Below, piece after piece: positions 2,534 through 14,227 of a DNA stretch of 32,465 nt. The notes beneath the pieces were generated by a model. It was not told the origin of the DNA, searched no databases, and saw only the letters and a program-made list of their open reading frames with translations. This stretch comes from a virus (taxonomy: Duplodnaviria; Heunggongvirae; Uroviricota; Caudoviricetes). Every line of letters starts with the position of its first letter. Position 1 is the stretch's first letter. The stretch covers positions 1 through 32,465 of IMG/VR virus record IMGVR_UViG_3300035520_000350. The stretch is one strand, 5' to 3'. The translations under genes were made by a program, and so were the position numbers.

Positions 2534-3127
2534 ATGAAAAAGTCATTAATGACTAAAATCCTAATCAAGTTAGGATACAAGAAAGTTATATTCAAGCCCG
2601 GAATCAACATAGTTGAGTTCCCAGACAAGTATGATGAAGCACGCAGAAGATTTCTGCAATATATTGCAGATACTCATTCGGAGGACGAAGTGAGGTTTAC
2701 CGGAAGGTGTGACTATCATATAAACAAAGCGACTAACGGCGATGACATTGAAGATCTTGCTACCAGAGAAGGTTGGAAGAATGTTGTTGTGATAGATGCT
2801 ATTAGCCAGTCTATCGATAATGTGTATGGATGTACTTATTGTGCTACAAGTGATTTCTATAAAAATCATAACTGTACAGACATTAATACATCCATATTAT
2901 TAGCGGATGGTTCGTGGGCTGTAGAGAATGGTGTTGTTGTTATTTTTCTTATCGACGATATTGCCAATCTTGACAATATCGAGTATGCTTATGAAACAAC
3001 TAGAAGCATATTATTCAACTTATCTGGAAGTTTCACTAAGTACAGAATTCAGCCAACTAAAGACTGCATGGAAATTAGCAGCAAAGATATCAAATTGAAC
3101 CAGATAGCATCAATATACTCAAAGTAA
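2534..3127 (+). CDS. Hypothetical protein
   Basis: 197-aa ORF, GAGGAG RBS, first gene of a co-directional cluster; no recognised motif. Confidence 0.8.
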   Translation: MKKSLMTKILIKLGYKKVIFKPGINIVEFPDKYDEARRRFLQYIADTHSEDEVRFTGRCDYHINKATNGDDIEDLATREGWKNVVVIDAISQSIDNVYGCTYCATSDFYKNHNCTDINTSILLADGSWAVENGVVVIFLIDDIANLDNIEYAYETTRSILFNLSGSFTKYRIQPTKDCMEISSKDIKLNQIASIYSK

Positions 3128-3140
3128 AGGAGAGAACAAA

Positions 3141-3710
3141 ATGTCAGACAATTTTTTATCAAAGGTATTAGGGATTAAGATGAGAGCATTTAACCCTAAT
3201 CCATCTCAGGATGTAGAGTCAATGGAAGACTTGTCCGATTGTTCAGTCAGAGCAATATGTGGCTTAACCGGATTTTCTTGGGAAGAAGTATACAAAGGTC
3301 TATTTCATGCTGGTCTAAAGAAACATCGTATGATGGACACAGGCAGATCAGAGCAAATTTATCTTGCAGAGTATGGTTATGTAAACATAGCACATTATCT
3401 GGATGACATTGAAACAGTTGCGGAGTTTCTTTATACGTATAAAGAAGGAGAATATATTGTAGGATGTGACGGTCATGTCTTCTATTATGCGGATGGAACT
3501 ATATATGACAACGCATATTGCATTGCAAGATTCGAGAGTTTATATACTAATGTAGTGAATATTGTGTTTGTCAGCATAGACAATCCTAAATTCCGCAAAG
3601 AGATCGATAAAGCACTATATGCTATAGAGACAATAAAAGACGCTGAAGCTTATCATACAGATAAGTTGAGAGCTATGTACGAGAATGCCATTAAGAGAGA
3701 AGAAATCTAG
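3141..3710 (+). CDS. Tandem paralog 1: putative papain-fold (C39-like) Cys-His protein
   Basis: NPNP...DCSVRAICGLTG.SWEEVY, GHVFY, IYDN motifs; AAGGAG RBS. Confidence 0.7.
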   Translation: MSDNFLSKVLGIKMRAFNPNPSQDVESMEDLSDCSVRAICGLTGFSWEEVYKGLFHAGLKKHRMMDTGRSEQIYLAEYGYVNIAHYLDDIETVAEFLYTYKEGEYIVGCDGHVFYYADGTIYDNAYCIARFESLYTNVVNIVFVSIDNPKFRKEIDKALYAIETIKDAEAYHTDKLRAMYENAIKREEI

Positions 3711-3722
3711 GGGAGGAAACAA

Positions 3723-4292
3723 ATGTCAGACATTTTCTTATTAAAGGAATTAGGAATAAAGACAGAAGTTTTTAACCCTAATCCATCTCAGGAAACTGAT
3801 TCAGTGTTAGATTTGCATGATTGCTCAATTAGAGCAATATGCGGTTTAACAGGAGAATCTTGGGAGGAAGTATATACAGGGTTATCTAATATAGGTCTTA
3901 CTCGTCACAGAATGATGAATGCATGTAGCGTTTTGGAAGAATATCTATCAAGATATGGATTTATCAATATAAAGTTTTATTTATATGATTTTACAAACCA
4001 ATTAGAGTTTATGCACAAATATAAAGAGGGTAGGTATATCATAATAGACAAAGAACATTGCTTCTATTATTCTAATGGAGTTATATATGATAATGCGAAC
4101 TCAATTGAGCATATAGAAGCATCGTATAGCAAAAAAATACGTGGTCTATTTGTATGTGTTACTAATCTTCAATTCAAATATGAAATTTCTAAAGCGTTAA
4201 CTAAATTAGAAAGTTCAAGTGAAGCTAAGGATTTTCATGCAGATAAGCTTAGAGCTATGTACGAGAATGCCATTAAAAGAGAAGAAATATAA
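3723..4292 (+). CDS. Tandem paralog 2: putative papain-fold (C39-like) Cys-His protein
   Basis: Same motifs (DCSIRAICGLTG, EHCFY, IYDN); starts 582 nt after copy 1. Confidence 0.7.
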   Translation: MSDIFLLKELGIKTEVFNPNPSQETDSVLDLHDCSIRAICGLTGESWEEVYTGLSNIGLTRHRMMNACSVLEEYLSRYGFINIKFYLYDFTNQLEFMHKYKEGRYIIIDKEHCFYYSNGVIYDNANSIEHIEASYSKKIRGLFVCVTNLQFKYEISKALTKLESSSEAKDFHADKLRAMYENAIKREEI

Positions 4293-4303
4293 GGAGGAAA
4301 TAA

Positions 4304-4885
4304 ATGTCAAGCAATTTTTTATCAGAGGCATTAGGAATAAAAACAAAAGTTTTTAACCCTAATCCAGATCAAGAAACTGATTCAAGTGAAGATAGATATG
4401 ATTGCTCAATTAGAGCAATATGCGGTTTAACAGGAGAATCTTGGGAGAACGTGTATACCGGATTATTTCGTATAGGTCTTGCTCGTCATAGAATGCTGAA
4501 CACACCTTATGTTGCAGAAGAATATCTATCAGAATATGGCTTTATAGATATAAAATCTTATTTAAATGATATCACTAACCCATTAGAGTTTATGTATAAA
4601 TACAAGAATGGTGAATATATCATGATTATCCCTGGTCATACTTTTTACTACTCTGATGGAACCGTATATGATAATGCACATTCAATAAAAAGGCAGGCAT
4701 TATATAGCTCCAAAATAATGTATCTGTTCGTATGCGTAAACAACCTTCTCTTTAAAGATGAGATTGCTAAAGCTTTATGCAGATTAGAGGAAACATGTGA
4801 TACAGAAGCTTTTCATGTAGATGCTCTCAAAAATATCTACAATAACGCTCTTGATGAAGAGTCCAGTAAAGTAGAACCTAAGTAA
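4304..4885 (+). CDS. Tandem paralog 3: putative papain-fold (C39-like) Cys-His protein
   Basis: Same motifs (DCSIRAICGLTG, GHTFY, VYDN); starts 581 nt after copy 2. Confidence 0.7.
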   Translation: MSSNFLSEALGIKTKVFNPNPDQETDSSEDRYDCSIRAICGLTGESWENVYTGLFRIGLARHRMLNTPYVAEEYLSEYGFIDIKSYLNDITNPLEFMYKYKNGEYIMIIPGHTFYYSDGTVYDNAHSIKRQALYSSKIMYLFVCVNNLLFKDEIAKALCRLEETCDTEAFHVDALKNIYNNALDEESSKVEPK

Positions 4886-5508: not shown

Positions 5509-6143
5509 TTATTGTTGTCTTCCTTTGTTAAGTATTCACTATTCTTACTTTCATAGATTTCCTCTTTATGAGATAGATCACTGATAGCAGTAATAATGGT
5601 AGAAGTTAAACCATCTGTCAGTAGTATCTTCTGGTTCAGATGCTGTTCTTCTATACCGTATTTAGCATATCCCTCACTATAATAGATCATCTTAAAGCCT
5701 TCATCATAACGAAGTTCTCTACTCTTCAGTTTAGGGATAACCTTTCTGAAGAATTGCAACTTATTGCGTACCCGGCTGTTAAAGCCACCTATTGAAAGAA
5801 TATCTTCGTTGGTAGCAATAAGAGTATTAACCCAGTACTCACTAAGTTCTTTTACATACATTACTCCATCAGGAGTGATATCGTATACGAGATAAAATAC
5901 CTTATCCATATGAATAGTGTCATCACTGGTATAAATACCACCTATCTCATACTTGTTATCTAACTTCTGGTCTAATGCATGTCTCTCAAACTCTTCCACA
6001 TGCACCCCTTCATGTAATGGATAGCTAGACATATTCCGGATATCTTCAAGAGTCTTCTCTAACTTGATAGCATCATCCTGACTAAGTACTACATCCAATA
6101 CAAGCCTTACATGTGAATTGTCTTTCTTCATCATAATTTTCAT
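5505..6143 (-). CDS. Hypothetical protein
   Basis: 212-aa ORF, ATGA overlap with the upstream gene, GAGGAG RBS. Confidence 0.8.
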   Translation of the reverse strand: MKIMMKKDNSHVRLVLDVVLSQDDAIKLEKTLEDIRNMSSYPLHEGVHVEEFERHALDQKLDNKYEIGGIYTSDDTIHMDKVFYLVYDITPDGVMYVKELSEYWVNTLIATNEDILSIGGFNSRVRNKLQFFRKVIPKLKSRELRYDEGFKMIYYSEGYAKYGIEEQHLNQKILLTDGLTSTIITAISDLSHKEEIYESKNSEYLTKEDNNK

Positions 6144-6502
6144 TTCTCCTCTACTTTGATTATATTTTCATACTGACTTAAGATAGGAATTCTATATCCT
6201 ACTACAGTAACCTCATAAGTATTACCTACTTCAAGTTTACCCTGGATATCAGAACTATTGAACTTAAATCTTATGAATAGATCTGTATTCTCAAATACAT
6301 GTATTTCTCCAGATTCATCCTTTGTAAATACTATGTACTTAGAATCTGCTGACTTATCATCAGAAGATTCATAGATACGATCTTTGTCAGTTACTGTTAC
6401 CACATAAGTATGGTCATTGAAGACTGTACTTACAGAGTATAATACTCCAATGATAATAGTAGCTACTACAAGACAAATAACAATAAATCTAGTCTTACTC
6501 AT
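6140..6502 (-). CDS. Membrane-anchored/secreted small protein, DUF1523-like phage family
   Basis: N-terminal hydrophobic helix; VFENTD...KFNSSDIQGKL...Y.V.V.G.RIP.LS.Y.NII pattern recalled from a widespread phage family; AAGGAGG RBS. Confidence 0.6.
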   Translation of the reverse strand: MSKTRFIVICLVVATIIIGVLYSVSTVFNDHTYVVTVTDKDRIYESSDDKSADSKYIVFTKDESGEIHVFENTDLFIRFKFNSSDIQGKLEVGNTYEVTVVGYRIPILSQYENIIKVEEK

Positions 6503-6529: not shown

Positions 6530-6559
6530 AGAGTAGGAGATATTAATATCTCCTACTCT
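6530..6559. terminator. 30-bp perfect palindrome downstream of the radical SAM cassette
   Basis: AGAGTAGGAGATATT|AATATCTCCTACTCT; the preceding + strand A-run gives a U-tail on the minus transcript. Confidence 0.7.
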
Positions 6560-6567
6560 AGAGTTCT

Positions 6568-7575
6568 TTACTTATTCTTCTTGTAATCCTGAACAAGATT
6601 ACCACAGCAAAGTGGAAGCTCTGCTTTAGCTGCTACGTCTACGATAACCTTTAAACCACAGCTCTCTACTCTTTCCTTGATCTTATTCATGTTCTCCCAG
6701 TTCCACTGTATTGCATCCTCAAGACCATGTTCTTTAGTAGCGTTTGTTACGTTCAAAGGTGTAATCTTTACACAGAACACATCAGGGTTCAATCCGTATA
6801 ACTTATCCGGATTAAGCTCCCATCCTGCTCCACAGATGAAGTTTAAAGTAATAAGTCTATTGCTGTTAGGCAAATAGTTAAACTCTTTCTTCATCTCTTC
6901 TATAGTTACTACATTAGCTCCACCAAACAAAGCTCTTCTTTCATCTTCGTTAGTAGAGTTTGTAGAGATCTGGATATGCATGAAACCATCCAGATATGCT
7001 TTAGTATACATTACATCTTCCTTAAGTACTTCTATCGGTCCTTTACCAAACACATTTACCTTAGGTAAGATAGTGTTGTAGCAAGGTAAGAAAGTGAATC
7101 CCTCTCTGTAATGTTTCATATCACTCATTACTTCGAGGATATTCTTCCAATTGTACTGTGGTTCTCCCATTCTGGCAAAACCTACCTTGATCTTGTCACT
7201 CTTAGTAACTTCCGGATGCTGAGCAAAGACAAACTCTAACTGCTCCCACATCTCTTCTTTACTAAGGTTTCCTCTGAAACCAAGTTCCGGTACTAAGCAG
7301 AACTGACACTTCTGTGGGCAACCATACTGGGTGCTGATAGCAGTTAGCCACTTCTCCTCATATGGTACAAGATTCTGCTTAATCAAAGATTCATCATCAG
7401 TCATGATGATTTCCTGAGACTTACCTTTTGTGTTTACATCCTGCATGGATGTAGTCTCGATATAGAAGTCTTTCTCCTTGTTGTATAACACGTATACACT
7501 TCCGCTAGGATACTTATACTCCTTTACTAACTCAAAGTGTTTACTTCCCAGTCCATTGTTTTCTAAGGTCTTCAT
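6568..7575 (-). CDS. RlmN/Cfr-like (class A) radical SAM methyltransferase homolog
   Basis: IETT (RlmN VETV/E105), ISTQYGCPQKCQFC (SSQVGCxxxCxFC), GFRGNLS, RMGEP (MGEP), C-terminal CCGNL (ACGQL/C355). Start reassigned to ATG 7575 (GGAGAGG RBS). Confidence 0.8.
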   Translation of the reverse strand: MKTLENNGLGSKHFELVKEYKYPSGSVYVLYNKEKDFYIETTSMQDVNTKGKSQEIIMTDDESLIKQNLVPYEEKWLTAISTQYGCPQKCQFCLVPELGFRGNLSKEEMWEQLEFVFAQHPEVTKSDKIKVGFARMGEPQYNWKNILEVMSDMKHYREGFTFLPCYNTILPKVNVFGKGPIEVLKEDVMYTKAYLDGFMHIQISTNSTNEDERRALFGGANVVTIEEMKKEFNYLPNSNRLITLNFICGAGWELNPDKLYGLNPDVFCVKITPLNVTNATKEHGLEDAIQWNWENMNKIKERVESCGLKVIVDVAAKAELPLCCGNLVQDYKKNK

Positions 7576-7981
7576 TTGCAATCCTCTCCTTTGCTTCATA
7601 TAGTATTCTATAAGCTGAACTCAATCCTGCTCTATCATCAAGCAGAATATTGTAGTATATCTTATCACCAGTGAATGGTATATAAGGTGGAGACTGGTTT
7701 ACATAGTCTACCTTAATACCAACACTTTCACAGTAATCAAGCATAAACTTGTTCTTTGATTCATCACAACAAGTGCTTAGAATCAGTGTACAACCCATAC
7801 TCTTACATTCCTTAAGTAAGTTTATTACTTTAGTATAGGTATACCCCTTATTGTAGTAATCATATATCACATTATCAAAGTCAAATGCGATAATGATACA
7901 GTTATGAGCTCTCCAGTTCTCAACTAATCTATCTACACATAGTTTATCATTGAGATATGGATCGTCTAATGGATATTCCAT
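7541..7981 (-). CDS. HAD-superfamily phosphatase
   Basis: Motif I IAFDFDNVI, motif II LST, motifs III/IV KIYYNILLDDR; AAGGAGG RBS. Confidence 0.8.
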   Translation of the reverse strand: MEYPLDDPYLNDKLCVDRLVENWRAHNCIIIAFDFDNVIYDYYNKGYTYTKVINLLKECKSMGCTLILSTCCDESKNKFMLDYCESVGIKVDYVNQSPPYIPFTGDKIYYNILLDDRAGLSSAYRILYEAKERIANEDLRKQWTGK

Positions 7982-7996
7982 TAATCTAGTCCTCCT

Positions 7997-8731
7997 TTAA
8001 GAACAAGACTGTTCGATGTCTTCATACTTCTTCATCCATATCTTTCTTTCTTCTTCACTATTGCCAAAGAAATACGGATACAGAGTATTGTTTGTTGTAA
8101 AGAAGTAGTTATGATACTCGCCATCCGGTAAGAACAATACTCCTTCTTCTGATATCTGGTCCTTTATAGCATTGAAGTTTTCATAAGCCTTTCTGTTACC
8201 AAACATCTGTCTAAATGTAATCTGCTTAACTCCAATACCTTTCATTGTCTCTATATAAGCTAAGCAGTCATCTTTAGTCATTCTCTCATTAAGTACATTG
8301 ATGACTCTTACCTTAGTACTTTCTTCAATATAGGGAAGCATTATTCTAAGTCTATTTATCATAAACTGATCATCCTTCTCTATACTGAGAGCAATCTTCC
8401 GGAACAATGGTACAAGTTGTGAACTCTTATCCGGAATGATTCTTGTATGTACGTCTAATCTCTTACCATAAGCTCTACCAATATCATAGACCTTATTGAA
8501 GAAATAAAAGTTGTCTTTATATCCATAGAATGGATCTCCTCCACCAGAGAGATTTATTGTCGGTGCATTTGATTCAGATACACACTTCTCTAAGTAGACC
8601 CAGTCTATCTTACTTACATCTGTCTTTTGATTCTGCAATATCGGATGATGTTTACTGATACAGTACTTACATCTCTGATCACATCCGAAATTGGTTATGA
8701 TAGTGAAACCTTTATTAGTTTCAGTATACAT
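7997..8731 (-). CDS. Radical SAM protein of unknown reaction
   Basis: ITNFGCDQRCKYC (CxxxCxxC) and LSGGGDP. Start reassigned to ATG 8731 (GGGAGG RBS). Confidence 0.8.
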   Translation of the reverse strand: MYTETNKGFTIITNFGCDQRCKYCISKHHPILQNQKTDVSKIDWVYLEKCVSESNAPTINLSGGGDPFYGYKDNFYFFNKVYDIGRAYGKRLDVHTRIIPDKSSQLVPLFRKIALSIEKDDQFMINRLRIMLPYIEESTKVRVINVLNERMTKDDCLAYIETMKGIGVKQITFRQMFGNRKAYENFNAIKDQISEEGVLFLPDGEYHNYFFTTNNTLYPYFFGNSEEERKIWMKKYEDIEQSCS

Positions 8732-9982: not shown

Positions 9983-11207
9983 TGCACGATTTTAGGTATC
10001 ATTACGCACCTAATACACTTCGTAGAGTGTAGAGTAGTCTTTCACTACTTTCCAGAGCACATCTTTATCTGCCATATACTGTTACCATATATGGCAGATA
10101 GCAATCGTTTCTATTTAATGGATTTACTTAGAGCTAATATCACTCTAATACCAACCCCTAACGTTTGGGTTATACTATACTCAGTTCGTGTATACTATTG
10201 TATACCTTATTTTCAAAGAGCCTGGGCTATTTTCAGGTTGCCTCCCATTTAGATATTTCTATCAATGCTCTTATCTACCTTTCTATGCTCGTTGTACTAG
10301 AAATTATATTCACAGGTAATACTCCTCCAAGTTTTATACTTAATATTCTGAACTTGACCAAGATTAACCCCAGTAACTTCTGATATCTGTTTTAAAGTAA
10401 GATTTCCTTCTTGCAGACATTCGCAAACTGACCTAACTTGTTCTTCTGTAAGTTTAGAACTTTCTTCGATTTTTCCTGTATGAGGATGCTTTAAACCAAG
10501 TCTAATAGCTTCTTTTTGATTGTAAGAGCCATCACACCATTCCAAATTATCTGGATTGGCAATTCCTGGATAATCAATCCAGTTAGCAGTCTTTCTTCCA
10601 TTGATATGGTTAACCATCATATCCTCACAACCTGGAAAATATCTGAATGTAAGCATCATAAGACGATGTACTCTACAAGTGTGAGCCATACCATCTTTAA
10701 ACCTTAATACAGCAATTCTATATCCTGGACCATCCCATGAAGTACTCATAAAACGATTCATATAAACATGCCATATTCTTCCGAATGTACTTATTGCGTA
10801 ATAAGGCAATATTCCTGGAGCTGCTTGATCTGTTATCATTTCAAACCTTTCTCCTGGTAACCATTCTGGAACTACAAATACTGGTGATTGATGCTCCAAA
10901 TCATACTTAAATTCTTTAGATATTTTACCCATTTTAAGAAACCTCCTTGTAATGTATTTTAGGGTTATAGTAAGGTTTCTTAATTTGTTATAATATAATT
11001 CTAGTGCGGACTGTGGATTGTTAAAGTACTTAGGCTTACTATCACCATATACCATCCATAAGATTTGTTTCTAGGTTTCCCAAGCCTAATAAAATATTTC
11101 ATTTATTAGGCACTTATGGCTTTACCAGTTCCCCGCTTTTAGATTGCTGTTTCACAGAGAATCACTTCCCTGATGACCATTATTCAAAACCCAATGAATT
11201 ATTGTTT
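9983..11207 (-). mobile_element. Group I intron 2 (about 1225 nt) carrying an HNH homing endonuclease; boundaries uncertain by up to 4 nt
   Basis: AAAGCGGGGAAC (P) and GTCCGCAC (Q) lie 5' of the ORF. ACAACGAGCAT (10295-10285, R) and AAGATGTGCTCT (10065-10054, S) lie 3' of it, followed by a GAAA-capped P9-like hairpin. CTAGAATT/AATTTCTAG closes a stem around the ORF. Confidence 0.88.
10297..10932 (-). CDS. Intron-encoded HNH homing endonuclease (NUMOD4/I-HmuI-like N-terminus, C-terminal HTH)
   Basis: YAISTFGRI, RVHRLMMLTF, VNHINGRKTAN...NLEWC...YN. Start reassigned to ATG 10932 (AAGGAGG RBS). Confidence 0.9.
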   Translation of the reverse strand: MGKISKEFKYDLEHQSPVFVVPEWLPGERFEMITDQAAPGILPYYAISTFGRIWHVYMNRFMSTSWDGPGYRIAVLRFKDGMAHTCRVHRLMMLTFRYFPGCEDMMVNHINGRKTANWIDYPGIANPDNLEWCDGSYNQKEAIRLGLKHPHTGKIEESSKLTEEQVRSVCECLQEGNLTLKQISEVTGVNLGQVQNIKYKTWRSITCEYNF

Positions 11208-11462
11208 AATCACTGGCAACCCTTCAGGTGTACTGTTCTTGATTATTGTGTCGATTATACTTGCCACTCTATCGTCTTTTGTTGCTGTAGCACGATATAC
11301 TACATCATAAGCTTCAGAATAACTCATGTTATACAACCTGTTGAGTATATTGATAATCTGTGGTTGAAGCATTATCACAAGCATAGTATAAGGTAAAGTA
11401 ACCTGATCAATTCTTAATGATGGCTTCTGTGAGATTACCGCTCTACCCGAGAAGTTATATCT
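11208..11462 (-). CDS. rpoC: RNA polymerase beta-prime N-terminal subunit, exon 2 (RYNFSGRAVI...EGLPVI)
   Basis: Matches beta-prime RVDYSGRSVI...PVLL; begins right after a terminal G at 11463. Confidence 0.88.
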
Positions 11463-11799
11463 CCTTCTGTTCATTCAGATTCGTCACATCTGAACCAAAA
11501 CTCTAAAACTTCTAGAGTTGCTATATATTTCTATATAGAGCAGACTATATCTTCATCCAAGTATATACTTGGAGCTAACCATTTCGATTTGAGTCGACTT
11601 ATATTGCACCAATAATGCGACACCCCTTTTAATGACTTGGGCTCTACGTACTTACGTACTAGTCGTTGAACGCTTCTTATATATTGATATATAAGATTCG
11701 CAGCTAGTTCTCTTATAGACACTTCTCAAATCTATAAGCTTTTCCAGCATAAGGAAAGTCGGCATCTATATATTACTACATAGATGGGCTAATCTCTTA
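11463..11799 (-). mobile_element. Group I intron 1 (337 nt, no ORF)
   Basis: P1 GGU|UAA-GAGA-UUA-GCC with U.G at the splice site; TATGCTGGAAA (P); TTCAACGACTAG (11670-11659, R); AAGATATAGTCTG (11553-11541, S); GAAA-capped P9 (11538-11521); terminal G. Confidence 0.9.
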
Positions 11800-12855
11800 A
11801 CCTGCAACTAAAGATCTTAACTGCCCTTTCTTACCAGAGCAGATAGCAATAATCTCATCATGTAATTCCATGAACTTCATCTGTAACTTATACAACATTT
11901 GATTCTTCTTCTTTGGATCTCTCTGCATACGAGTCTTATCAGCGTTAATACGATGAACGTGTTTGTTGATCATATTATAGATACCATTGATAGGCTCGTA
12001 ATACATGTTCTTGTCTCTGATATCTGCTGGTCTAAGATGTGTAGTAAACACCGGAATAGAATGAGTGAATACTTTATCTCTATCCTGCATAATATCGTCA
12101 TAATAGTCTTTCTTCTTCGGATTCTTCTTGAGATAGTATTCCATAATCTCATCGAATCTCTGATAGAAAGCCATCATGCCAATTCCAAAGAATGGTTCAT
12201 TAGAAGGAGGGTTGATTACCTCACTTTCATGACCGTTCTGATCAATCTGTACATTATAGAACAAGATGTTCTGTAGTACAAATCCTTTCTTGGCATTCTT
12301 CTGCTCTACGTTAATCTTTGATTGACCAAAGAAAAACTCAAGAGACTTATAAATGTCTGGATGTATTACATGGTACTGATCTTTCAATACTACCCATCCA
12401 AACATCTCGAAGTTGTCGTCTACATACTTACATTTAGTATGACACTTCTCACAGACGATCCCATGATTTATACGGCTCTTAAGATTACCGCACTGACATG
12501 AGTATCGATCTGCAAACGGATTCAAGTCACCTAACTTCTGTCCATACTTGGTACTGAAGATTCCATTAGGATCTTTGATATCCTTCTTGATAGTTGCTTT
12601 TGGAGAAGATATGATGAATCCATTACCAGTGGCAATGTCATGATCTTTCTCTTCATCCAAGTTTATCCGTTCAAGTATAGTGTAATAATCGTACTCAGGA
12701 GAATACGGATAAGAGTACGATATGTTGATAGTAACTTCATTAGGTTTCTTTTCTTCATTGTCTTCCACAGGTGGTGTAATGAAGTTCTCACTACCAACAA
12801 ATGAATTCAACAGATCTTGTATATCATCGGTTAGAATTCCAGTTGAATCACTCAT
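11800..12855 (-). CDS. rpoC: RNA polymerase beta-prime N-terminal subunit, exon 1
   Basis: Zn finger CQCG...CEKC, IPVFTTHLRP, ends GKKGQLRSLVAG (E. coli GKQGRFRQNLLG); AAAGGAG RBS. Confidence 0.9.
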
Positions 12856-12943
12856 ATATTATGACTCCTTTCTCTTAATGATATAATTGGTTTGAACTTA
12901 AACTACCCTCCTTTCAAAGTTCGTATCTATAGTTTATTATTAA

Positions 12944-12989
12944 CAGACAAATTTGTCTGGAGCCATTAATTAGCTCCAGACAATGTCTG
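12944..12989. repeat. Four CAGACA/TGTCTG half-sites forming overlapping inverted repeats upstream of the beta-prime gene
   Basis: CAGACA-aatt-TGTCTG (12944-12959), TGTCTGGAGC-N9-GCTCCAGACA (12954-12982), CAGACA-a-TGTCTG (12977-12989). Confidence 0.7.
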
Positions 12990-13160
12990 CCAAAGTTCAC
13001 CTTTTCTCTTTAAGAGAGCTTTGTTGATAGCAAGTCTCAAAGTAGAAGCAGTTACCGAATCCAACTTACTATAGTCTATAGAAATAGTACCAGTAGTATT
13101 AGCTTTAATAAGCTTTTCTACTGTCTGGTAAGAGTCTTTCATCACGTCAATGCCTTCCAT
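12966..13160 (-). CDS. Small hypothetical protein (64 aa)
   Basis: Start reassigned to ATG 13160 (AAGGGAG RBS), overlapping the end of the upstream gene. Confidence 0.7.
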   Translation of the reverse strand: MEGIDVMKDSYQTVEKLIKANTTGTISIDYSKLDSVTASTLRLAINKALLKRKGELWQTLSGAN

Positions 13161-14175
13161 AGAGTATACTCCCTTCTTTTCTTTCAAGTAATATTTCTCT
13201 TCTGATAGCATCCTGATCATTAAGCAGCATTGCACTCATCTCGTTATAATACTCATCTCCCAGACCAAGATCTTTATATGTAGTATAAATATGAAACATC
13301 TTATACTGCTCTAAGATATAACGAAGTCCTACATCTGATGAATCATAGAACTCATCATCCCATTTGATACAGTTACTCAGTATCTTATCTGCTCCGGATT
13401 TAGAGAGATCATCATTGATAGTAGAGCAACAGAGTATTGCTTTATGCTTAAAGATCTTAGAAGCTTCCTTAAACCAAGGTAGTTCATAACTATCTTTATT
13501 AGCATTATCAATGATCAGATTGACATAGTTGACAAACTCTGCTTCGTCAATAAAGACAGTCATAGAATCGAGATTCTTAGCTACTCTTACAGCTTCCTCC
13601 GGAGACTGCATTCTTCCATGTGGATTTCCATACAAACTCTTAAACTTATCAATATCAAAGTCCCGGATACACTTTGGTAATAACTTGGTATACTCTTCCA
13701 TTGTATCTCTCAGTACATTATTATCCCTGACAGTTCTTGAGATCAAAGCAATGTTTAGGTTCTCTTCTTCGTCATCGATATAACCATCAAAGATTCTGAT
13801 CCAGTTAAGTAAAGCTAGAGTATATGATGTCTTCCTTAACATTCTTGGTTTTGTAACCCAAGAAGAGCATTCTCTCATTGTAAGATATACCTGAGCCATG
13901 TTGGAACGATCAAGTATATATGGCACTGTTCCGCCGCCTGCATCTGGTAAACGGATGATTCTTAAATAGTACCAAACATTTTCCATGCATTCTCTTATAA
14001 CAGCGAACTTCGTAGTCCAAGGTAAGTTCGGATCATAAGGATCTACGTTCAGAAGTAGATCATTATTAAGAGTAAGCATAAACTTGTTGTTCTTTACACC
14101 AACACTTTTCAGATATTTATGCATATCTAAGAAAGATTTGTTAGCCGGATTTAGATCATAATAGGGTTGATCCAT
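13147..14175 (-). CDS. Terminase large subunit-like ATPase paralog (no nuclease domain)
   Basis: Jumbo-phage terminase-type N-terminus (N.SFLDMH.YLK..G.KNNKFML.L), Walker A-like KPRMLRKT, Walker B VFIDEAEF; 342 aa from ATG 14175 (AAGGAGG RBS). Confidence 0.65.
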   Translation of the reverse strand: MDQPYYDLNPANKSFLDMHKYLKSVGVKNNKFMLTLNNDLLLNVDPYDPNLPWTTKFAVIRECMENVWYYLRIIRLPDAGGGTVPYILDRSNMAQVYLTMRECSSWVTKPRMLRKTSYTLALLNWIRIFDGYIDDEEENLNIALISRTVRDNNVLRDTMEEYTKLLPKCIRDFDIDKFKSLYGNPHGRMQSPEEAVRVAKNLDSMTVFIDEAEFVNYVNLIIDNANKDSYELPWFKEASKIFKHKAILCCSTINDDLSKSGADKILSNCIKWDDEFYDSSDVGLRYILEQYKMFHIYTTYKDLGLGDEYYNEMSAMLLNDQDAIRREILLERKEGSILYGRH

Positions 14176-14227
14176 TCTCTTATACCTCCTTTTATCTAAG
14201 TTACTAAAAAGTTTCAAGAATTGTGAT

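Follow-up and report, generated by a model that had tools for sequence, protein, structure and literature searches.

RlmN and Cfr are, to our knowledge, the only characterised cases in which methylation proceeds via a protein-bound methylene radical. In RlmN, Cys118 is considered indispensable for turnover, while the strictly conserved Glu105 deprotonates Cys355. RlmN is a dual-specificity C2-methyl synthase acting on A2503 of 23S rRNA and A37 of tRNA (TIGR00048; PDB 3RFA, 5HR7, 6FZ6), and Cfr is the C8-methyltransferase of A2503 in 23S rRNA (TIGR04432; PDB 9P0P). Exchange of Cys118 for Ala leaves E. coli RlmN cross-linked to RNA (PMC9692996; PDB 5hr6/5hr7). An RlmN-like radical SAM protein encoded by a 243-kb gut phage (CheckV completeness 99 %) carries Ala at the position of Cys118 and retains the methyl-carrier cysteine. 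Such a combination suggests either that the adduct is resolved in another way or that another reaction is carried out on the same scaffold.

The gene A locus and its product

Gene A (product P0001, 335 aa) occupies positions 6568–7575 of the minus strand, including the stop codon (6570–6568), in the window, that is, the whole 32,465-nt stretch of DNA analysed. Its open reading frame is preceded by a ribosome-binding site, with AAGGAGAGG upstream of the ATG at 7575, and its product matches PHROG 24834 (E 7e-34); the enzyme is intact and probably active. The start of the gene shares 35 nt with the 3' end of a gene encoding a HAD-like phosphatase of 146 aa (7541–7981, minus strand; PHROG 1238, E 2e-23, with weak NCBIfam HAD matches), which, according to neighbour clustering of homolog loci, is kept in close relatives only. 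Gene B (7997–8731, minus strand), recognised as the partner gene by its adjacency to A, encodes a small radical SAM protein of 244 aa when read from Met18 of a 261-aa open reading frame, its typical relatives being 243 aa long. A 13-bp hairpin followed by a T-run (6530–6559, minus strand), located 9 nt past the gene A stop, is a likely operon terminator. With their overlaps or close spacing and the terminator at the end, gene B, the phosphatase gene and gene A, in this order, constitute a predicted three-gene operon.

The window is devoid of tRNA genes; the sole tRNA of the phage is tRNA-Tyr (GTA). Searches of the 243-kb genome for NAD genes (Pfam PF04095, PF01467 and PF00857; tblastn with homolog proteins) returned none, and NAMPT/NAPRTase, NMNAT-like and isochorismatase genes are absent from this 99 %-complete sequence; nor was a gene for a TGT/DpdA-type glycosylase or transglycosylase found in the phage. 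The locus has no megablast match among cultured phage genomes, in which tblastn detected distant homologs only (at most 29 % identity), none of them characterised.

The AF2 model of the gene A product (pLDDT 92.7) comprises a radical SAM core, an N-terminal beta-extension and a C-terminal Cys loop, the elements of the RlmN-type fold. Among solved structures, it is matched best by those of RlmN (6fz6, 3rfa and 5hr7; Z 24–25, rmsd 3.1 Å over approximately 278 aligned residues, TM 0.64), compared with Z 18 for Cfr and at most 13.9 for unrelated radical SAM enzymes, and RlmN was the sole named family that a fold search of the Swiss-Prot part of the AlphaFold DB returned. As far as the model goes, the likeness to RlmN exceeds that to unrelated radical SAM enzymes and is not due to chance. 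The sequence scores, on the other hand, lie far below the cutoffs for both RlmN (42 bits against TIGR00048, cutoff 290 bits) and Cfr (36–40 bits, cutoffs 468–550). In the structural alignment, the N-terminal helical RNA-docking domain of RlmN has no counterpart: the alignment begins at model residue 3–13 and at residue 52 of E. coli RlmN (58–66 in other RlmN proteins), and because it starts at RlmN residue 52 or later, the gene A product is taken to lack this domain. The N-terminus of the model consists of three beta-strands.

The first-pass annotation had placed an Ala at the Cys118 position and a Cys-Cys pair at the Cys355 site, and both assignments were confirmed. Ala79 (codon 7339–7341, minus strand), seven residues ahead of the first cluster cysteine, falls on Cys118 in three concordant alignments, obtained with phmmer against the PDB RlmN chains 6fz6, 4pl1 and 5hr6, by matching the family profile to five genuine RlmN proteins with hhalign (probability 99.7 %, E 1e-24) and from the family itself. 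Within the C-terminal LPLCCGNL motif (Cys323-Cys324; 6604–6609, minus strand), phmmer and hhalign place Cys324 (6606–6604) on Cys355 and the extra, adjacent Cys323 (6609–6607) on the preceding Ala/Ser. The cysteines of the CxxxCxxC radical SAM cluster motif (Cys86, Cys90 and Cys93; 7297–7320, minus strand) and Cys324 are invariant among 45 family members and aligned with RlmN, the GEP motif being likewise invariant in the family alignments. A further cysteine, Cys165 (codon 7081–7083, minus strand), lies in a core beta-strand (residues 160–168 of the model). In both sequence-based alignments, the position of RlmN Glu105, a residue that the first-pass annotation had read as retained, is taken by Lys66, which is not conserved, residues 62–66 being helical in the model. 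However, the third N-terminal strand contains, within an 'IET' motif resembling the 'VET' strand of RlmN, the family-invariant Glu40 (codon 7456–7458, minus strand), which is a candidate structural equivalent of Glu105.

Family, partner gene and genomic context

The loss of Cys118 was initially regarded as peculiar to this one phage enzyme, a view that did not withstand comparison with its homologs. A cysteine occupies the corresponding position in all five genuine RlmN controls, but in only 4 of 415 homologs, those four being RlmN-like outliers. In the phylogenetic tree, true RlmN proteins form a clade (support 100/100, branch length 2.48) apart from three clades that lack Cys118, namely Cys-Cys, Thr-Cys and Asn-Cys. 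The gene A product falls outside the RlmN clade and within the Cys-Cys clade (support 99/96), the signature of which it bears (W-x3-S-T-Q-x-G-C, R-M-G-E-P, N-S-T-N/D-E and a C-terminal C-C-G-N/Q). By this phylogeny, the absence of Cys118 is an ancestral trait of the family and not specific to phages. Bacterial genomes with family members also encode a genuine RlmN, suggesting that the family comprises paralogs with another job. These proteins make up a large uncharacterised sister family of the class A radical SAM methylases RlmN/Cfr, whose members number in the hundreds to thousands and come from phages and from gut bacteria. Many of them have been automatically annotated as '23S rRNA (adenine2503-C2)-methyltransferase', a label that is probably wrong.

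The Cys-Cys pair is confined to the clade of gene A, Cys118 being absent far beyond it. The same clade is characterised by an invariant Cys165, replaced by Val or other residues elsewhere, and by the adjacent partner gene; the Thr-Cys and Asn-Cys clades have neither the Cys-Cys pair nor the additional Cys165 nor the partner. Gene B adjoins gene A in 23/25 Cys-Cys-clade loci as opposed to 0/16 Thr-Cys-clade loci, and the pair is still adjacent in a contig (L009) where the homologs of A and B are 39 and 51 % identical, respectively. The correlation between Cys-Cys and partner B was considered as evidence of a functional link and dropped, since the pair, Cys165 and the partner occur together in one clade of single origin and their co-occurrence is thus not independent evidence. 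The earlier proposal that the extra cysteine or the partner resolves the adduct agrees with the presence of all three features in one clade, but the single origin and the fact that the other clades manage without them weaken it.

The sole sequence match of B is a weak, generic Radical_SAM, comparison with PDB sequences yielded nothing meaningful, and a protein-atlas search returned viral clusters only, with uninformative automatic names. Its fold is nearest to that of viperins (Z 15–16), followed by MoaA and SuiB (Z 14–15; MoaA, 14), and the use of NTPs by viperins is in keeping with a small-molecule substrate. As other radical SAM cores score only approximately 1 Z unit lower, a function cannot be transferred to B. 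Prediction of an A–B complex gave a median score of 0.05, which is evidence neither for nor against an interaction.

Of 80 cellular loci examined for the genomic surroundings of the gene, 10, belonging to three or more lineages, have it within a PncA-like/NadE/NMNAT/NrtR operon; in the Thr-Cys sister clade, the gene is chromosomal and found in NAD operons. Some sister-clade proteins occur as fusions with an ECF S-component, an MTA/SAH-type nucleosidase, an isochorismatase or a TrxR-like flavoprotein. NAD islands also lie beside homologs in three phage contigs (L009, L010 and L011), of which L009 alone connects NAD with the Cys-Cys clade. By contrast, in 34 diverse viral loci (149 of 159 ORFs of at least 150 aa within 4 kb scanned), DNA methylases, helicases and RNA ligases predominate among the neighbours, and NAD genes do not, the commonest Pfam family being N6_N4 DNA methylases (9/149), and the A/B pair is usually located among replication and recombination genes. 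These mostly non-NAD viral neighbourhoods and the lack of NAD salvage genes in the phage speak against a small-molecule substrate, as does the location of some relatives in tRNA arrays or beside RtcB, RlaP or PTH2, where an RNA substrate is possible.

Substrate and chemistry

The family membership, residue pattern, fold and operon and partner linkage observed for gene A allow a substrate class and a chemistry to be inferred. Since the state without Cys118 is normal in the sister family and a second radical enzyme is present here, both a different chemistry and a target other than the ribosome are probable. The gene A product is believed, with a probability of roughly 0.55, to have a non-ribosomal target (most probably a nucleotide or a small molecule of the pyridine/purine-nucleotide type) and not to trap RNA. 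A non-RNA substrate was one of three options put forward in the first-pass annotation and is the best supported of them, the support coming from context in relatives, namely the NAD operons and fusions of the sister clades.

The family has retained the [4Fe-4S]/SAM core and the mobile C-terminal Cys324, Cys118 and the RNA-docking domain being ancestrally absent. Cys324 might function as a methyl carrier, as in the first half-reaction of RlmN, or as a hydrogen/thiyl donor; methyl transfer is assumed from one conserved cysteine. The product would be released without the need for Cys118, and in the Cys-Cys clade the vicinal Cys323 and Cys165 are candidates for the release step. A further-reaching scheme, which should be regarded as speculative and rather doubtful, is that A and B of the Cys-Cys clade, aided here by the phosphatase, work as a two-enzyme machine making an adenine or pyridine nucleotide that is C-methylated or bears another radical-derived modification, with release in cis via Cys323 or Cys165, and that the product serves to manipulate the host nucleotide/NAD pool or to escape NAD-depleting immunity. 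If so, the users of this product would be jumbo phages of gut Clostridia.

Among the alternatives, modification of RNA, with tRNA a likelier target than rRNA, is unlikely but holds up best; it would involve RlmN-type methyl transfer and resolution of the adduct by Cys323 or Cys165. The fold is far closer to that of RlmN than to any other, and the cysteine that carries the methyl group is invariant; moreover, a Thr-Cys-clade homolog is located inside a 21-tRNA array, adjoining RlaP, genes for RtcB, RNA ligase and PTH2 are close to some homologs, and the phage has a tRNA-Tyr gene. However, this context is weak because unrelated accessory genes also gather in the tRNA regions of large phages. The missing N-terminal domain of RlmN, the NAD operons of the sister clades and their fusions to transporters and small-molecule hydrolases also argue against RNA, as does the locus itself, where tRNA genes are absent from the window and gene A shares its operon with a viperin-like radical SAM protein and a HAD phosphatase.

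Modification of phage DNA or of a DNA precursor nucleotide, in which two radical SAM enzymes and a phosphatase would generate a hypermodified base that counters restriction, is less probable still. The prevalence of N6_N4 DNA methylases around viral homologs and the position of the pair among replication and recombination genes are compatible with this role, as are the resemblance of B to NTP-using radical SAM enzymes and the phosphatase within the operon. Nevertheless, DNA methylases are plentiful in large phages and their adjacency may be due to chance, the phage has no TGT/DpdA-type gene, and the Thr-Cys sister clade is chromosomal and resides in NAD operons.

Kinship with QueL of Clostridioides difficile (YP_001088187.1), a radical SAM enzyme that converts queuine to preQ1 and is encoded in a queK-qrtT-queL operon (PMC11477304), would make the gene A product a lyase and not a methylase, and it is highly improbable. 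It was suggested by Thr-Cys-clade fusions with a nucleosidase and with an ECF S-component that resembles QueT (37 bits for P0121, against a cutoff of 33.7), an arrangement mirroring that operon, and by the only tRNA of the phage, Tyr-GTA, which belongs to a queuosine-modified tRNA family. Yet the phage lacks a TGT gene, and no preQ1 riboswitch was detected in five other homolog loci scanned whole at the Rfam gathering threshold or, at E up to 0.1, in the 4-kb surroundings of the fused gene in L001. Furthermore, among the commonest neighbour Pfam families of 45 cellular loci, QueT, QueK and TGT do not feature, whereas NAD genes recur.

The covalent RNA trap proposed at first, a natural suicide enzyme that would resemble the C118A variant and jam translation by cross-linking itself to host rRNA or tRNA, accounts for Ala at the Cys118 position together with a retained Cys355 equivalent but is the least credible reading, given that the same loss is seen in almost all 415 homologs, including chromosomal genes in operons with metabolic enzymes, that bacterial genomes with family members also encode a genuine RlmN, that the RNA-docking domain is missing, that a stoichiometric trap would have no need for a conserved partner radical SAM protein and phosphatase, and that gene A has decayed in close relatives.

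Comparison with known systems

Phage NAD+ reconstitution by NARP1, NARP2 and NARP3 (bioRxiv 10.1101/2024.02.11.579819; PMC13464706) offers one point of comparison. In some phage contigs (L010), NAMPT and NMNAT-Nudix genes flank or adjoin homologs of gene A, and in close relatives of this phage (L042) the same locus houses Prs-NAMPT-Macro-NadE, whereas the NARP genes searched for are all absent from the phage studied here; the full text of the NARP papers (bioRxiv 10.1101/2024.02.11.579819; PMC13464706) nowhere mentions a radical SAM enzyme. The repeated occurrence of sister-clade genes in NAD operons, together with the presence of another radical SAM enzyme beside the phage homologs, suggests an undescribed nucleotide or cofactor chemistry that is relevant in infection. 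Like viperin, the prokaryotic viperins and MoaA, the partner B folds as one compact radical SAM domain, but it is only 10–13 % identical to them and has no family-level sequence match.

With Cfr, the gene A product shares the same class A architecture and two-SAM logic, but Cfr has both mechanistic cysteines (Cys105 and Cys338) and is a weaker match than RlmN. With RlmN, it has in common the core, the extra N-terminal beta-strands, the C-terminal loop of the Cys355 type and the CxxxCxxC and GEP motifs. It differs from RlmN in its low identity (16–18 %) and its place outside the RlmN clade, in having Ala79 for Cys118 and Ala at the position of Met176, and in lacking a counterpart of E. coli RlmN residues 1–51, while possessing the additional Cys323 and Cys165 and a partner radical SAM gene that appears to be obligate.

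Gene A and the missing RlmN resolving cysteine

Gene A occupies an open reading frame at 6568–7599 (minus strand), with an ATG at 7575 preceded by a good ribosome-binding site (AAGGAGAGG), and its 335 aa product, P0001, contains a CxxxCxxC motif formed by C86, C90 and C93. When all PDB sequences were compared with P0001 using phmmer, the only matches were RlmN and Cfr chains, with RlmN C118A mutant chains scoring slightly above the wild type. These alignments placed Ala79 (codon 7341–7339) opposite RlmN Cys118 and C324 (6606–6604), the second Cys in the C-terminal LPLCCGNL, opposite RlmN Cys355. The same correspondences were obtained by profile–profile alignment of the family with five genuine RlmN proteins taken from bacterial genomes (probability 99.7 %, E 1e-24). 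The AF2 model of P0001 (pLDDT 92.7) has RlmN as its nearest solved structures (Z 24–25, rmsd 3.1 Å, ~278 residues), followed by Cfr (Z 18), with every other radical SAM enzyme at Z ≤13.9. The sequence and fold comparisons confirm the resemblance to RlmN and the coordinates reported in the first-pass annotation, while the two alignment methods agree with its assignment of Ala to the C118 position and of Cys-Cys to the C355 site. For RlmN Glu105, described as kept in the first-pass annotation, there are two candidate positions. In sequence alignments it falls on the non-conserved Lys66, located in a stretch that is helical in the model; alternatively, its counterpart may be Glu40, which does not vary within the family and belongs to an ‘IET’ motif of the third N-terminal strand that resembles the RlmN ‘VET’ strand.

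P0001 is nevertheless not RlmN. Its best NCBIfam match, TIGR00048, reaches 42 bits against a cutoff of 290, and the protein matches PHROG 24834 (function unknown; E 7e-34). Structural alignments start at model residue 3–13, opposite residue 52 of E. coli RlmN and approximately residue 60 of other RlmN structures, so the N-terminal helical domain of RlmN has no counterpart in P0001, the N-terminus of which is modelled as three β-strands. Genuine RlmN above the cutoff was present in all five of the checked bacterial genomes with family members, which makes the family a paralog that serves a different purpose. A second RlmN-like gene, at 277 bits just below the RlmN cutoff, is encoded in two of these genomes (G001:C1:465010–465855 and G003:C95:105–947) and could be a paralog resembling Cfr.

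The family is broad: of the two very large protein sets searched, the first yielded 84 homolog clusters (E ≤0.001) and the second 143 (E ≤1e-10) or 1038 (E ≤0.001). In a tally of 415 homologs with the motif, the position seven residues ahead of the first cluster Cys held Thr in 294, Ala in 38 and Cys in 4, the remainder being mostly Ile, Asn, Val, Met, Ser, Gly or Leu; in each of the five true RlmN controls it is Cys. The four Cys-bearing homologs are the most distant matches and have RlmN-like Ala-Cys or Ser-Cys C-termini, and in a maximum-likelihood tree they form one clade with true RlmN on a long branch (100/100). The absence of C118 thus characterizes the family rather than this phage protein. 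Proteins without C118 fall into three clades, named after the dipeptide at the C355 site: Cys-Cys (99/96), which includes P0001, Asn-Cys/Ser-Cys, and Thr-Cys (100/100). The dipeptide counts in the 415-homolog tally were 241 for Thr-Cys, 65 for Cys-Cys, 23 for Asn-Cys and 9 for Ser-Cys, and the C355-equivalent Cys is invariant in a 45-sequence family alignment. In P0197, an ECF-fused family member, Ala-Pro-Gly-Gln replaces this Cys, leaving both mechanistic cysteines absent.

The Cys-Cys clade, partner gene B and the phage

Members of the Cys-Cys clade all have C324 and a further cysteine, Cys165, located on a core strand as part of an LPC[FY]N motif, and Cys323 is nearly invariant among them; neither Cys323 nor Cys165 is present in other clades. 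The constant neighbour in this clade is the small radical SAM gene B (7997–8731, minus strand). It adjoins A in the same orientation at 23 of 25 loci of the Cys-Cys clade, compared with 0 of 16 of the Thr-Cys clade, and tblastn detected it at 56 of 76 viral loci. On contig L009, for instance, an A homolog of 39 % identity is immediately followed downstream by a gene 51 % identical to B. The Cys-Cys dipeptide, Cys165 and B all belong to one clade, so that finding them together represents a single origin and not independent evidence of coupling. The relatives of B form a family of limited size (144 matches), and their nearly uniform length of 243 aa supports Met18 as the B start. The structures nearest to the B model (pLDDT 93.4) are viperins (Z 15–16), with MoaA/SuiB next (Z 14–15); the predicted fold is a hint of a nucleotide substrate, not proof of one. 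All conserved cysteines of B lie in its cluster motif, so it has none to offer in trans for resolving the adduct.

A HAD-like phosphatase gene (7541–7981, minus strand; PHROG 1238, weak HAD matches), common to close relatives only, lies between B and A, and the three genes are tightly packed, with a 16-nt gap followed by a 35-nt overlap. On the minus strand, 9 nt past the stop of A, lies a likely terminator consisting of a 13-bp hairpin and a T-run. The gene directly downstream of it (6140–6502, minus strand; PHROG 301) is small, is annotated as DUF1523/‘secreted protein’ and has an N-terminal hydrophobic segment.

The phage record to which the window belongs is 242,978 bp long and 99 % complete by CheckV; its multisubunit RNA polymerase genes are split, as is typical of jumbo phages. 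Lachnospiraceae hosts are suggested by close homologs in Hungatella and Enterocloster assemblies. The phage has one tRNA gene, tRNA-Tyr (GTA), at C1:62567–62649 of its own genome, outside the window. Four tandem genes of 189–197 aa (2534–4885, plus strand), one matching PHROG 3754 (function unknown), look like a local paralog expansion, the translations of three (3141–4885) having a similar N-terminus (…LGIKT.VFNPNP…). At 10297–14217 (minus strand), an HNH endonuclease gene (10297–11055) lies near an RNA polymerase beta-like fragment (11797–12855) and a terminase large subunit ORF (13147–14217) whose matches to terminase profiles are restricted to their N-terminal part; a split or invaded gene may be present here.

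Genomic context of the relatives

Clues to function come from the fusions and gene neighbourhoods of relatives. In 14 species a QueT-type ECF S-component, an RlmN-like radical SAM domain and an MTA/SAH-type nucleosidase form a triple fusion; these proteins (~810–940 aa) derive from Clostridia and Bacilli MAGs (L088 and 13 other genome loci, e.g. P0121). Other members are fused to isochorismatase or to a thioredoxin-reductase-like flavoprotein, and isochorismatase, flavoprotein and radical SAM are also seen as an operon of separate genes. Of 80 loci with cellular Thr-Cys-clade genes, 10 (in Alphaproteobacteria, Firmicutes and CPR bacteria) have the gene within a PncA-like/NadE/NMNAT/NrtR operon, and among 123 close neighbours no theme is more frequent than NAD families. 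On phage contigs, homologs are flanked by NMNAT-Nudix and NAMPT (L010) or by QRPTase and isochorismatase (L011), and the L009 island, of the Cys-Cys clade, holds NadA, two NMNAT-like genes, NrtR, Nudix genes, an ADP-ribosyl glycohydrolase and a nucleoside hydrolase.

The NAD/nucleotide link is thus solid for the sister clades but only suggestive for the B–HAD–A operon, for four reasons. No NAMPT/NAPRTase, NMNAT-like, isochorismatase or TGT genes were found in the 242,978-bp phage. Among 34 diverse viral loci (ORFs of at least 150 aa within 4 kb, 149 of 159 scanned), the neighbours are mainly DNA methylases, helicases and RNA ligases. Two close relatives, L042 (7851–8870) and L043, carry a decayed A copy (86 % identity; 5′ end lost, in-frame stop after LVPEL) without the B and HAD genes, directly downstream of Prs (PRPP-synthetase-like)–NAMPT–Macro–NadE, an arrangement compatible with either replacement or merely an accessory-gene hot spot. 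Finally, the Thr-Cys-clade homolog P0328 (labelled Clostridium innocuum) lies within a 21-tRNA array, with an RlaP-family gene downstream, in what looks like a phage or prophage region (L007:1–6300). Radical SAM is not mentioned in the full text of the phage NAD reconstitution papers. A relation to QueL was also considered and received no support from the context (e.g. no TGT gene in the phage).

Mechanistic readings and comparison with RlmN and Cfr

In RlmN, C355 is methylated by SAM, the 5′-deoxyadenosyl radical then generates a Cys-S-CH2 radical that adds to adenine C2, and resolution of the covalent adduct depends on C118, which serves as a base and possibly works via a transient S–S species (PMC9692996). 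P0001 keeps all requirements of the first half-cycle but lacks C118; RlmN Met176, thought to stabilize the thiyl radical, is also missing and aligns to a nearly invariant Ala134. The favoured reading, held at a probability of roughly 0.55, is that P0001 is functional and acts on a non-ribosomal, nucleotide-like substrate. The non-RNA substrate proposed earlier gains from the fusions and NAD operons of the sister clades; the phage’s own gene content, which lacks NAMPT/NAPRTase, NMNAT-like and isochorismatase genes, speaks against an NAD role in this operon. C324 would serve as methyl carrier or hydrogen/thiyl donor, and release might proceed via Cys323 or Cys165; alternatively, a substrate with a pyridinium or other activated ring would require no cysteine base. 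The thioredoxin-reductase-like partner of the Asn-Cys clade would fit cluster reduction or a thiol/disulfide cycle. The suggestion that an extra Cys or the partner radical SAM resolves the adduct survives in part, Cys323 and Cys165 staying candidates and B having no conserved Cys to give beyond those of its cluster motif. That P0001 is instead a suicide enzyme that covalently traps RNA, as the cross-linked state of RlmN C118A (PMC9692996) had suggested, is very improbable because the protein is not RlmN (no N-terminal helical domain, 42 bits against 290), C118 is missing family-wide (Cys in 4 of 415 homologs) and the Cys-Cys clade has a constant partner, B.

RlmN and Cfr are the closest known enzymes to P0001, sharing its fold, cluster and carrier Cys. 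Set against these are the absence of C118 and of the RNA domain, the low family scores, the placement in a separate clade, the extra cysteines and the partner enzyme.
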